A stretch of 48,579 nucleotides of DNA from Raineyaceae bacterium (GCA_043764015.1 JAYUKY010000057.1:1-48579); one strand, 5' to 3'; shown: positions 42,018 to 46,211, counted from the first letter of the stretch. The notes: a model not told the origin generated them from the letters alone. Translations and numbers: made by a program.

Positions 42018-42057
42018 TTTGTTTGCAATTTTGCAATTTTGCAATTTTGCAATTTTG
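42018..42057. repeat. Tandem octamer repeat (TTTGCAAT)x4 plus partial units, 55-90 bp upstream of the first small-peptide gene
   Basis: gtttg tttgcaat tttgcaat tttgcaat tttgcaat tttgcggg, seen directly. Followed by the small hairpin agtagaaatatctctact. Confidence 0.7.
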
Positions 42058-42109
42058 CGGGAGTAGAAATATCTCTACTGATTTTTAACATTCTAATTCC
42101 TTCAATAAT

Positions 42110-42319
42110 ATGAAAAAGAAAATTGTTTTTGTAATGGCTGTACTGGGTATGGCTTTTGCAAATGTGCAAGTAAATGCACAAAATGAGCGTGTGAGACCTC
42201 CTCGTGGTGCTGCTGACGGTTTTAAAAATGCCAGTATTAAAGAAACGGGACAAGGTACTTACAGTTGTATGCAATGTAATTTTTTTGGAGCTTGTGATGT
42301 TGTTAATTGTGCAGGTTAA
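42110..42319 (+). CDS. Cys-rich secreted small peptide precursor 1 (69 aa; Sec signal + ~45-aa mature peptide)
   Basis: MKKKIVFVMAVLGMAFANVQVNAQ | NERVRPPRGAADGFKNASIKETGQGTYSCMQCNFFGACDVVNCAG. Paralog of the next ORF with the same leader and the same ...VQVNAQNER junction. Confidence 0.55.
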   Translation: MKKKIVFVMAVLGMAFANVQVNAQNERVRPPRGAADGFKNASIKETGQGTYSCMQCNFFGACDVVNCAG

Positions 42320-42339
42320 TTAATTTAAAATTGACTAAA

Positions 42340-42540
42340 ATGAAGAAAAAAATCATAATAGCAATAGTTGTACTAGGTATAGCCATTGGAAGTGTGCAAG
42401 TAAATGCACAAAATGAAAGAATAAGGTATGTAAGTGAAGATGCTGGTAAAAATGCAAAGCTTATAGACAAAGGATATGGGCTTTTTGATTGTACAACTTG
42501 CGACCCTAGCGGTTGTTGTGCTGTATTAAACTGTAATTAA
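42340..42540 (+). CDS. Cys-rich secreted small peptide precursor 2 (66 aa)
   Basis: MKKKIIIAIVVLGIAIGSVQVNAQ | NERIRYVSEDAGKNAKLIDKGYGLFDCTTCDPSGCCAVLNCN. The start is taken at the internal ATG 42340 rather than the ORF-track start 42307, which overlaps the upstream gene. Confidence 0.55.
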   Translation: MKKKIIIAIVVLGIAIGSVQVNAQNERIRYVSEDAGKNAKLIDKGYGLFDCTTCDPSGCCAVLNCN

Positions 42541-42557
42541 ACGAATTTTCTCTTTAT

Positions 42558-42592
42558 ATCAAGCAGTATAATTTTGAGATTATACTGCTTGA
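42558..42592 (+). terminator. Hairpin atcaagcagtataat-tttgag-attatactgcttgat after the peptide genes
   Basis: 15-bp perfect stem. A partial terminator or attenuator before the lipoprotein genes. Confidence 0.55.
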
Positions 42593-42625
42593 TAATTTCT
42601 ATTCATTAACACTAAAAAAACTTTT

Positions 42626-43870: not shown

Positions 43871-43908
43871 CCTTTTTATAGTTTATTTTTACTTAATATA
43901 CATATTTT

Positions 43909-45153
43909 ATGAAATTCTCTTTATCACTATTTATAATTTTCTTTGTATTTTCTAATTGTAATGCCCAAAAAGATAAACAGGGTAACAAAAAAGTACCTAA
44001 TAAACGCACAGAAAAGCAAATAGCCTACTTTAAATCAAAAAATATTGAGGTAGTAGAAAATAAAGAACCTCTCAATAAAGACCAGTATGAACTCTGCATC
44101 ACAGATTCCATTGTAGCTAAAATGGATTCTGTAAGGTTTCGTTTTTATGACTTTTCTCTGATGCGCAAAAATAAGATTATTTTTGCGCAAGGTGGTAGAA
44201 GTGCTGGTTATTTAATGTCTGGTAAGGGCACTATGATAAGTCAAATAGGGAATTTAGGAACTAATTTAGGTGAATATCAAGGAATTAGTTTTAAGTTAGC
44301 ACATAACAGGGATTCTATATTTGTAGCTTCTCATACTGATGGAAAAGTATTTTTATATAATAAAGAGGGTAAATTTATAAAATCTTGGAAATTTAAAGGT
44401 GCTAACTTAGGTATTGCAGTAGGTAGTCAGTTATCATTACACAGAAATAATAAAAATGAACCAGTTATATCTGTAGTAGCCACTACAAAAGAGTTAAGCT
44501 ACATAACTAAAGAATTTTATGAGAAAACTTTTTTAATAGCATCTCTTAATCTTGTTACAGAAGAGACCACCACAGCCCTGCAATATGAGCCAGAAAGCCC
44601 ATACAAGCAAGGTTTATCTTACCTCTACCCTGCGGAGCCTTGTATTATTCAAAAAAATAATGGCAATTATATAATAGCTTTTATGGTAGATGAGATAATC
44701 TATGAGTATGACAAAAATTTTAAACTTATTAAAGTTATAAACCCTAACTCGGATAATTTCCCAGAACCACAAGGGGTAAAACTAGAAGATGACCAAAAAG
44801 ATATTATTAATGATGTTTATAAATATGGTGTTAGACTAAATGCAAATAACAAGTCTGCCTCTACTCTTTTCACTCAAAAAGAGGGATATTTAGTCAAATA
44901 TTATAATATGCCTATTGGAGATGGAGCTAACACGCCTAAAAATATGAATGAGTTTAATACCAGCACTTTTGTAGAAGACCGCAAGTTACAGATATTTACC
45001 ACAGAAGGCAAAAAGTATTGCCCAGAAATACTGCTACCCAAAAAAATAAACAATCTGCAGTATGCGGAAAGCTTAGACAAAATGTATTTTACCTCCAACG
45101 AAAAACTTACAGAAAATAATGTTATCTATATTGCCAAAATCTGCAAAAAATAG
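43909..45153 (+). CDS. Hypothetical lipoprotein, paralog B (414 aa)
   Basis: MKFSLSLFIIFFVFSNC|NAQ. Co-linear homology with 42626..43870, including identical blocks VPNKRTEKQIAYFKSKNIEVVENKEPLNKDQYE and NPNSDNFPEPQGV. Confidence 0.6.
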   Translation: MKFSLSLFIIFFVFSNCNAQKDKQGNKKVPNKRTEKQIAYFKSKNIEVVENKEPLNKDQYELCITDSIVAKMDSVRFRFYDFSLMRKNKIIFAQGGRSAGYLMSGKGTMISQIGNLGTNLGEYQGISFKLAHNRDSIFVASHTDGKVFLYNKEGKFIKSWKFKGANLGIAVGSQLSLHRNNKNEPVISVVATTKELSYITKEFYEKTFLIASLNLVTEETTTALQYEPESPYKQGLSYLYPAEPCIIQKNNGNYIIAFMVDEIIYEYDKNFKLIKVINPNSDNFPEPQGVKLEDDQKDIINDVYKYGVRLNANNKSASTLFTQKEGYLVKYYNMPIGDGANTPKNMNEFNTSTFVEDRKLQIFTTEGKKYCPEILLPKKINNLQYAESLDKMYFTSNEKLTENNVIYIAKICKK

Positions 45154-45568
45154 TTTTTTTGTGCTTTGTGTGTATGCACTATGTGCCTGCAATACACAAA
45201 AAAGATATACGAGCCTCAAAATTTTTGATAACATTAAGCAGGAGTTTGCAGAGGTAGATTTTAAGCAAAAAACTGCTTTATTGGTATTTTATGAGGGTAA
45301 TTGTAGTGGCATATCTTCTCAAATAAAACAAGCATTAGAAAATAAAATAAAGCCTAATACCCAAAAAATAGGACTTTATTTGAAAATGAATGCTAAATCA
45401 AAATTTGGTTATCAGGCTTTACTTGATGAAACAAAAAATGATATAAAATGGGTTTCTATGAAAAATAGAAGCCTTTTTGGGCTTATCTCGCAAGGCACCA
45501 AATCAAATAAAAGTCCTTTTCTTGTTAATATTAAAAATAATAGAGTCATAAGTGTGAGTAGTTTTTAG
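45119..45568 (+). CDS. Small lipoprotein, paralog 1 (149 aa); thioredoxin-like fold candidate with a degenerate CxxC (NCSGIS)
   Basis: Lipobox ...VYALCAC|NTQ. Shares PNTQ-IGLYL-N-KAKFGYQ-LLDETKN-IKWVSMK-R-LFGLISQ blocks with the next ORF. Confidence 0.5.
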   Translation: MLSILPKSAKNSFFVLCVYALCACNTQKRYTSLKIFDNIKQEFAEVDFKQKTALLVFYEGNCSGISSQIKQALENKIKPNTQKIGLYLKMNAKSKFGYQALLDETKNDIKWVSMKNRSLFGLISQGTKSNKSPFLVNIKNNRVISVSSF

Positions 45569-45631
45569 AAGGAATACATTTACCTTACATTTCGCTCAAT
45601 ACTGCTCATTCATCACTAACTACTTCATTTT

Positions 45632-46093
45632 ATGATTTTCAAGCATTTAAATAAATACTTGTTCTGTATATTTGCCGTTTTTTTATGTATTAGCTGCACC
45701 ACACAATATGAAAAATTAGGCGTTTTTGAGGGCATTAAGAAAGAATTTGTAGGGGTAGATTTTAATAAAAAAACCTCTCTATTTGTTTTTTCTGATATAG
45801 ATTGCTCCACTTGTATTTATTACATACAAGGCACACGTAAAAAAATCTCACCAAACACACAAATTCTTGGACTTTACCTCAATGTAAACCCAAAAGCCAA
45901 GTTTGGATATCAGGATTTGCTTGATGAAACCAAAAATGAAATAAAATGGGTTTCTATGAAGGATAGGAAACTTTTTGGGCTTATCTCGCAATGCACGCAA
46001 GCTGGTGCAAGTCCTTTTTTGGTAGAAATAGAGAATAATAAAATTATTAGCGTTGAGCCTCTTGTAGATATTATCAAGAAACAAGACAAATAA
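45632..46093 (+). CDS. Small lipoprotein, paralog 2 (153 aa) with CSTC (CxxC) motif; thioredoxin-like candidate
   Basis: Lipobox FLCISC|TTQ. FVFSDIDCSTCIYY resembles the beta1-CxxC-alpha1 start of TlpA/ResA-type thioredoxin folds. Confidence 0.5.
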   Translation: MIFKHLNKYLFCIFAVFLCISCTTQYEKLGVFEGIKKEFVGVDFNKKTSLFVFSDIDCSTCIYYIQGTRKKISPNTQILGLYLNVNPKAKFGYQDLLDETKNEIKWVSMKDRKLFGLISQCTQAGASPFLVEIENNKIISVEPLVDIIKKQDK

Positions 46094-46173
46094 ATATTAC
46101 ACTATTCCTGTGTTGTCAAAGCGGAAAAGCAAAATAGGTACGAAGTACGAAAATAAAACATTGATTATCAATA

Positions 46174-46211
46174 AAAAAGCGCATTTTACAACTGTAAAAT
46201 GCGCTTTTTTT
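46174..46211. terminator. Bidirectional terminator aaaaaagcgcattttaca-act-tgtaaaatgcgcttttttt (copy 2 of 41905-41943)
   Basis: Same stem sequence as copy 1, with one loop-nucleotide difference. Lies between convergent genes. Confidence 0.75.

Follow-up and report, generated by a model that had tools for sequence, protein, structure and literature searches.

The loci of several bacteriocins, among them sublancin (BdbA/B), pediocin (PedC), thermophilin (BlpG) and the bacteroidetocins, encode a dedicated disulfide catalyst, and in many bacteriocin operons an attenuator hairpin follows the precursor gene. In NHLRC2 and SOQ1, a thioredoxin (Trx)-like domain is mounted on a six-bladed NHL propeller, the redox motif lying in a conserved cleft atop the propeller, where a still unknown partner is proposed to bind; bacterial NHLRC2 homologues have no conserved neighbours, according to the NHLRC2 paper. 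For the DUF5128, DUF4221 and DUF4934 propellers, the 8 million papers searched contained only table entries of unknown function and no functional study. Here, a six-gene cassette at positions 42,018 to 46,211 of a 48,579-nt stretch of DNA from a Raineyaceae bacterium (GCA_043764015.1 JAYUKY010000057.1:1-48579; the whole stretch is referred to as the window) was analysed. The cassette encodes two small Cys-rich peptides (A1, A2), two propeller lipoproteins (B1, B2) and two Trx-like lipoproteins (C1, C2), and is read, with a probability of roughly 0.55, as a cell-envelope module dedicated to a small Cys-motif peptide, which B would hold and with which C would exchange disulfides. No paper treating such an A-B-C module was found in the literature searched.

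The six open reading frames (ORFs) lie on the + strand as three consecutive pairs of paralogues in the order A1 A2 B1 B2 C1 C2, and all six same-strand genes described in an earlier note, made from the sequence alone, are present. Related loci (L001-L018, from Roseivirga, Cyclobacteriaceae and metagenomes) were taken from the contigs of close B relatives, the more distant ones being located by exact look-up and pattern scans. L004/L005 are the window locus itself, whereas L001/L002 are a second contig of the same metagenome, on which A3 and a truncated B3 are followed by more cassettes. Of the 17 B-like loci, which reach down to about 20% B identity, 16 have a gene for a Sec-signal peptide with a Cys core immediately 5' of B. 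In all A-like peptides the core takes the form C-x2-C-(x5 or x3)-C-x-[VIL]-x-x-C close to the C-terminus, and a loose version of the motif was confined to these ORFs among the six-frame ORFs of 169 kb (L001-L011 and the window). The earlier note had suggested checking whether the A-B-C order is conserved in relatives, and it is: L003, from another sample, has the order A-A-B-C-C, while a peptide gene, B and an overlapping gene for a C-like CxxC lipoprotein follow one another in L012 (B identity 32%), L013/L014 (in which B exceeds the DUF5128 threshold), L015, L016 and L017/L018. One or more peptide genes followed by B, without C, are found in L006 (metagenome), L007 (a Cyclobacteriaceae metagenome-assembled genome) and L008, L009 and L011 (Roseivirga).

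The A and C features of these loci also vary together with B. Peptides with the x5 loop occur with C in the window and L003 and without C in L006-L011, and those with the x3 loop occur with C in L012, L013, L015, L016 and L018; loop length and the presence of C therefore follow the three B clades, indicating co-divergence. In seven loci, C begins 11-56 nt inside the end of B (35 nt in the window), suggesting translational coupling. In Roseivirga the module lies in stable chromosomal contexts, and L008 and L009, from two Roseivirga genomes, have the same flanks, suggestive of vertical inheritance. Judged by these sequence comparisons, the cassette is a conserved, co-inherited module of the Cytophagales as opposed to a chance neighbourhood.

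The A genes encode precursors of 69 aa (A1, 42110-42319, +) and 66 aa counted from its ATG (A2, 42340-42540, +), which are 48% identical (E 6e-21), confirming the paralogy proposed previously. Both begin with MKKK, continue with a hydrophobic stretch and then read VQVNAQ, as expected of a Sec-type signal. The earlier note had placed the cut after the Gln (VQVNAQ↓NER); the Sec signal stands, but cleavage by signal peptidase I is more likely to fall at VNA↓QNER, a site favoured by the A-x-A rule together with the Bacteroidetes Q-rule for signal peptidase cleavage (PMC5837995). The predicted mature peptides, of 46 and 43 aa respectively, are near-neutral or anionic, contain four or five Cys and end in the clusters previously described (CMQC-NFFGA-CDVVNC-AG in A1 and CTTC-DPSGC-CAVLNC-N in A2). 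The spacing of the four invariant Cys is knuckle-like, with CxxCGGxC in one clade, and beyond the Cys no His, Met or other metal-site signature is conserved among the A peptides. Neither A1 nor A2 matched Pfam at E<=1 or any NCBIfam model, and ten A-like and Cys peptides searched against NCBIfam at E<=1 returned only signal-peptide noise; two further Cys peptides of L001 and a 93-aa peptide of L010 had no Pfam match at E<=0.001-0.01. A link with the NVEALA small proteins of Bacteroidales (PF14055), which are encoded near propellers, was supported neither by hmmscan nor by any paper and was rejected, NVEALA having no mention in the literature searched. The A peptides carry no outer-membrane secretion signal and no double-glycine leader for a C39-peptidase ATP-binding cassette (ABC) exporter, and neither the cassette nor its immediate surroundings contain an ABC or C39 gene. 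Genes for a cytoplasmic maturase of ribosomally synthesised and post-translationally modified peptides (radical-SAM, lanthipeptide, YcaO and similar) are absent from the window cassette and from every related locus.

B1 (42626-43870, +) and B2 (43909-45153, +) each encode 414 aa, and the pair of lipoproteins described in the earlier note is therefore present, although their identity is 77% as opposed to the 65-70% given there. The lipobox Cys (Cys17), at the end of the hydrophobic segment, is invariant in 19 of 19 aligned relatives, and an invariant Cys closing the signal sequence indicates that B is a lipoprotein; there is no transmembrane or cytoplasmic part. The same alignment contains no other conserved Cys, which leaves A as the only obvious Cys-rich candidate substrate for C. 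Neither protein matched a Pfam model at E<=0.01, those for DUF5128, DUF4221 and DUF4934 included, and the close B family numbers just five members among 5.8 billion proteins. A profile built from these five relatives retrieved about 20 full-length relatives from 1.84 billion cluster representatives, together with many NHL-repeat proteins whose similarity covered B residues about 100-165, and the resultant 19-sequence profile added one further protein in a word-indexed search. Against the PDB, E-values for the 19-sequence profile ran from 1e-18 to 1e-11 with the NHL domains of Thin, TRIM2 and TRIM71, and 4raa, an exported protein, matched at 2e-5. Comparison by hhalign gave probabilities of 95% with a DUF4221 protein and 76% with a DUF5128 protein, and two intermediates, P0011 (E 1e-40) and P0019 (6e-19 to the B profile), exceed the gathering score of PF17170 (DUF5128). 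By homology, then, B is placed as an outlying branch of the DUF5128/DUF4221 superfamily of beta-propellers, with NHL repeats. The statement in the earlier note that no motif could be tied to a described family accordingly does not hold for B, given its NHL repeats and DUF4221 homology. A Lys-rich insertion of about 45 residues (NKKVPNKRTEKQIAYFKSKNIEVVENKEPLN...) was also observed between the lipid anchor and the propeller, at B1 residues 18-62 (window 42626-42800). It is confined to the close B family, being missing from all of the more distant relatives, and may serve as a long tether after Cys17.

The C genes encode lipoproteins of 149 aa (C1, 45119-45568, +, of which the first 35 nt lie within the end of B2) and 153 aa (C2, 45632-46093, +). 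They are 56% identical (E 1e-50), in keeping with their proposed paralogy, and they differ as previously noted in that C2 has DCSTC where C1 has NCSGIS. No curated match was obtained for C, the best being Thioredoxin_2 (E 0.035-0.12, against a 27-bit cut-off); no NCBIfam or PDB sequence match was found, and hhalign against E. coli thioredoxin was uninformative. Assignment of the fold was settled by structure modelling, not by sequence. The AlphaFold model of C2 (predicted local distance difference test, pLDDT, 75.4; predicted template modelling score 0.71) has thioredoxin topology: C58-S-T-C61 is at the N-terminal end of helix 55-69, and strand 129-134 is immediately preceded by S127-P128-F129. 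Its structural matches include 6gc1 and 7djk. As modelled, C2 is a TlpA/ResA/DsbE-like thioredoxin-fold lipoprotein with an intact CxxC opening helix 1, as the description of C as thioredoxin-like had anticipated. C1 retains the first Cys only, as does its L003 counterpart, and so lacks the CxxC. The CxxC motifs of C-like proteins elsewhere are CSTC, CESC, CNAC and CQTC, with CINC once. The latter, in the C-like protein encoded at L015 1473-1886, reproduces the last four residues of the CCINC of NHLRC2/SOQ1, although the match may be a coincidence.

A perfect 17-bp stem (42557-42594, +; -21.6 kcal/mol, z -6.9) is located between A2 and B1, where the earlier note had placed an internal hairpin that could attenuate read-through into B and C. 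When the A-to-B spacers were folded, a perfect hairpin of 11-17 bp was present in 11 of 11 (the window and ten loci; z -2.9 to -6.9). The sequences of these hairpins are unrelated among loci, with U-tracts in some, and their position is kept; the hairpin is a structure conserved by position, which fits the proposed attenuation. Only 31 nt separate the hairpin from the start of B1, leaving no room for a separate promoter, and the element may act as an attenuator or may stabilise the 3' end of a short mRNA for the peptides.

A conserved leader or promoter region of about 150 nt (41960-42109, +) precedes A1. It occurs once only in the window and is near-identical 5' of three other Cys-peptide genes in L001, so that four peptide-propeller cassettes in one metagenome carry copies of it, even though two of the L001 peptides are unrelated six-Cys peptides. 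The leader contains a palindrome, TTTAGAAT-G-ATTCTAAA, at about 41968-41984, with 14-nt, 86%-complementary arms spanning 41963-41991; a stem AGTAGA...TCTACT at 42062-42079, which is not significant alone (z -0.7); and a tandem octamer array, (TTTGCAAT) x 4.6, at 42022-42058 (+). The number of TTTGCAAT copies varies from about 2 to 4.6 across the four leaders, the L001 arrays being at about 9610-9650, 12400-12430 and 14090-14120, and such variation could change promoter spacing or operator number. A 38-nt pattern from the leader was found in none of 185,579 GTDB species genomes.

Further peptide-propeller arrangements were observed in the related loci. B3 (L001 10001-11161), a third close B paralogue, lacks its last ~45 residues, which no other frame restores, and is probably decaying; a DUF4221 gene lies 3' of it. 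The two six-Cys signal-peptide ORFs of L001, which share the leader, are each followed by a propeller lipoprotein gene (12433-16190): one product, of 354 aa, has no Pfam match and is homologous to the other, a DUF5128 protein of 343 aa, and 3' of these lies a gene for a 174-aa lipoprotein with the motif CSEC. Small Cys-rich signal-peptide ORFs also stand 5' of DUF5128 or DUF4221 genes at L010 6057-7029 and L015 3033-4304, and at L018 4549-6166 the gene for a second lipoprotein, which matches no family, is overlapped by a following gene for a CxxC (CDEC) lipoprotein. The peptide-propeller-thioredoxin pattern seems to be general for the DUF5128/DUF4221 superfamily. A tblastn search with a DUF5128 protein for annotated context on plasmids returned nothing.

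The earlier note attributed the paired layout to pairwise or interleaved duplication of every component, which the relationships with L003 contradict. A1 is 67% identical to the first L003 peptide (L003-Aa) versus 48% to A2, A2 is 53% identical to the second (L003-Ab) versus 48% to A1, and C2 is 70% identical to its L003 counterpart versus 53% to C1; the relationship of C1 is ambiguous (57% to the C1-like protein of L003). On these identities, the presence of two peptides, and of at least the C2 type, dates from before the split from the L003 lineage. B1 and B2 are closer to each other (77%) than to the single L003 B (68-71%), and on sequence identity theirs is the only recent, lineage-specific duplication, A1, A2 and C2 all having L003 orthologues.

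An atypical permease or adaptor of the resistance-nodulation-division (RND) type adjoins the module in five independent loci: L001/L002 (L001 6445-9558), L010 (1305-4436), L012 (1930-2553), L015 (1897-2958) and L016 (1863-2006, a 47-aa remnant). The permeases carry the motif TISFG[ML]IVDNA[VI]VMLDH and score far under curated RND cut-offs; along their full length, those of L001 and L010 share 43% identity, against only 23% for the other RND protein of L001, and identity between the adaptors of L012 and L015 is 33%. NCBIfam classes permeases and adaptors alike as generic RND parts, and the adaptors beside the module match CzcB/CusB-type Pfam models.

It seems probable from these features that the cell folds or holds a four-Cys peptide in its envelope. 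In the mechanism proposed, the precursor would be exported by Sec and cleaved at VNA↓Q, probably with formation of pyroglutamate, and the mature peptide would then dock on the face of the B propeller. Synthesis of C would be coupled to that of B through the overlap of their genes, and C would sit against B much as Trx sits on NHL in NHLRC2 and SOQ1, and would form, shuffle or reduce the two Cys pairs of A. The hairpin would yield peptide mRNA in excess of B/C mRNA, as might be expected if A is the substrate or ligand and B and C its handlers. The finished peptide would either stay on B or, in genomes having one, be expelled by the atypical RND pump. Peptide binding by B, thiol-disulfide exchange by C, a transcript in which the peptide is in excess and RND transport of the product are thus presumed steps of the model.

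Several observations weigh against this interpretation. L010 (Roseivirga thermotolerans) has a B-like gene without a detectable A, and C is absent from the Roseivirga-type loci, which makes C an accessory and places it outside the invariant core; the self-contained A-B-C system envisaged in the earlier note is otherwise supported, as a co-inherited module with a recurrent order. C1 has no second Cys, the redox direction of C may be that of an oxidase, an isomerase or a TlpA-like reductase, and the window cassette has no RND gene beside it. The AlphaFold2 model of B, made with five sequences, has a pLDDT of 33.7 and a low-confidence DSSP assignment with runs of short strands, so that the six-bladed fold and any docking face are predictions from homology. 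Moreover, the resemblance to NHLRC2/SOQ1 is architectural as opposed to one of membership. The units are here separate lipoproteins encoded in the reverse order (NHL, then Trx), C has a CxxC with variable inner residues in place of CC(I/V)NC, and the B repeats match TRIM-type NHL and not NHLRC2.

Among other explanations, the cassette might, as the earlier note chiefly proposed, encode a bacteriocin with its immunity functions, A1 and A2 forming a Sec-exported, disulfide-stabilised antimicrobial pair, C the oxidase, B a protective binder and the RND proteins the means of carrying the peptide out or away. This is possible but unlikely. The attenuator-like hairpin 3' of the precursor gene, the presence of two different peptides before one B in L003 and L006, and the use of one leader for arrays of different peptide-propeller pairs would all suit such a system, as would the locus-encoded thiol-disulfide oxidoreductase, which has counterparts in the bacteriocin loci, and the RND components adjoining five independent loci. 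The family is also very rare and patchy, with five close and about 20 distant relatives in 1.8-5.8 billion proteins, which favours this reading; however, the shared flanks of L008 and L009 suggest vertical inheritance, and the Cys core is strongly kept while B falls to about 20% identity, which looks more like a partnership than an arms race. The mature peptides, moreover, are near-neutral or anionic and not cationic and amphipathic, a 400-aa propeller would be unusual as an immunity protein, and the cassette provides no double-glycine leader, C39/ABC exporter or other outer-membrane route.

That A is instead a periplasmic Cys4 metal binder, or a small subunit of a B complex, with C keeping its thiols reduced and the RND/CzcB-like adaptor acting in the same pathway, is rather less probable again. 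The four invariant Cys with knuckle-like spacing fit this idea, although no His, Met or other metal signature accompanies them, and while the neighbouring adaptors match CzcB/CusB-type models, the RND permease is equally distant from multidrug and heavy-metal models. TlpA/Sco-like proteins are near C in fold space, and methylamine dehydrogenase, in which a disulfide-rich light subunit is paired with a propeller heavy subunit, offers a precedent for a small subunit with a propeller; the oxidising periplasm of aerobic Cytophagales would nonetheless be expected to favour disulfides, and no locus contains a metal regulator or P-type ATPase. It is improbable that A is a secreted cue and B a surface or periplasmic receptor regulating the leader-controlled cassettes. 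The leader common to four cassettes does contain palindromic candidate operator sites, and NHL propellers are often ligand-binding or sensor domains, but the retrieved loci have no kinase, extracytoplasmic function sigma/anti-sigma pair or other transducer beside the module, and B has no transmembrane or cytoplasmic part through which a signal might pass. Chance adjacency of unrelated small ORFs and lipoproteins is very improbable indeed: the A, B and C proteins of the window all fall below curated family thresholds, yet order, Cys motif, hairpin and B/C overlap are found again in independent loci whose B identity is 20-70%, the motif was confined to the A-like ORFs in the 169 kb scanned, and recurrent synteny over that range contradicts it.

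The cassette is bracketed by two hairpins, which the earlier note had described as near-identical and which do share 30 nt apart from one loop base. The upstream hairpin (41908-41941; -22.9 kcal/mol, z -5.9) is a 16-bp perfect palindrome between an A-run and a T-run, which gives it the appearance of a bidirectional terminator, and it probably ends the transcript of the vault-protein gene described below. The downstream hairpin (46173-46210; -21.9 kcal/mol, z -5.5), an 18-bp perfect palindrome, is a bidirectional terminator-like element common to the cassette and a convergent MarC-family gene downstream. The window contains only these two copies, against a chance expectation of 0, and since related loci have none the possibility of a repeated mobile element was rejected. 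An Rfam scan of 41750-46300 returned sub-threshold hairpin noise only and no known RNA element.

Directly 5' of the cassette, at 39242-41770 (+), is a gene for an 842-aa (826 as called) homologue of the eukaryotic major vault protein (MVP_shoulder 3.5e-27, Vault_3 2.4e-8); little is understood of such homologues in bacteria. Between its stop and the upstream hairpin lies an imperfect inverted repeat (41794-41831 / 41874-41911) with 38-nt, 82%-complementary arms and a 42-nt spacer. Further upstream, the window encodes a 1420-aa fn3/He_PIG protein with a Por_Secre_tail, a type IX secretion cargo (30073-34335), and a GldC-like gene (L004 1846-2184, about window 34471-34809), which together indicate a gliding Bacteroidota genome. 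Downstream of the cassette, from about window 48516 and for the most part past the end of the window, L004 15891-19895 contains another paralogue series, in which genes for 191/112, 199/112, 204/128 and 203 aa alternate without a Pfam match. The rest of the window contains no further B-like gene and no further A motif.

The cassette and its relatives provide a testable context for the function-unknown Bacteroidota propellers of the DUF5128, DUF4221 and DUF4934 families. If the propeller is a peptide scaffold, Gram-negative bacteria would have a new extracytoplasmic route for making or holding disulfide peptides, the Cytophagales would be indicated as a source of small stable peptides, and the Trx-NHL pairing of the human NHLRC2 of FINCA disease and of plant SOQ1, the substrates of which are unknown, could be studied in a tractable bacterium. 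More tentatively, this may be the first Sec-dependent system for maturing or holding a ribosomal four-Cys peptide in the envelope on a specific NHL lipoprotein scaffold, with a Trx-like lipoprotein partner for the thiol chemistry; the DUF5128, DUF4221 and DUF4934 families would each have a cognate Cys peptide, and the split bacterial system would expose the kind of substrate on which the fused Trx-NHL proteins NHLRC2 and SOQ1 act. This wider proposal is possible but doubtful.

Compared with the described systems, the module resembles bacteriocin loci in architecture only, in that a Cys peptide gene stands beside a gene for a Trx-like protein with a hairpin after the precursor. It departs from these in having a Sec signal in place of a double-glycine leader and C39 ABC transporter and in its non-cationic peptides, which have a propeller lipoprotein as obligatory partner, and no membrane protein of the immunity type was identified. 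C2 resembles TlpA, ResA and CcmG (DsbE) in its modelled fold, in its membrane or lipid anchoring, and in the placement of its CxxC, which opens helix 1, and of its Pro loop, which precedes the following strand; unlike them, C is sub-threshold by sequence, C1 is a monothiol, and the predicted partner encoded next to it is a peptide and a propeller, not a cytochrome or Sco protein. B is homologous to the DUF5128, DUF4221 and DUF4934 propellers (PF17170, PF13970 and PF16288), with a similar lipoprotein signal and size, and DUF5128/DUF4221 genes likewise follow small Cys-rich signal-peptide ORFs in L001, L010 and L015, with a CxxC lipoprotein next in L001; B1 and B2 nevertheless fall below those Pfam models, and their clade comprises about 20 members among 1.84 billion clusters. 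Finally, the module shares with NHLRC2 and SOQ1 an extracytoplasmic or lumenal pairing of a TlpA-like Trx unit bearing a Cys pair with an NHL propeller, but here a dedicated Cys-peptide gene is attached. The folds and the Trx-NHL pairing are already known. New are the division of that pairing between separate lipoproteins, the Sec peptide with four Cys that is dedicated to the module, the conservation of an attenuator hairpin, the leader common to several cassettes and the association with RND components.

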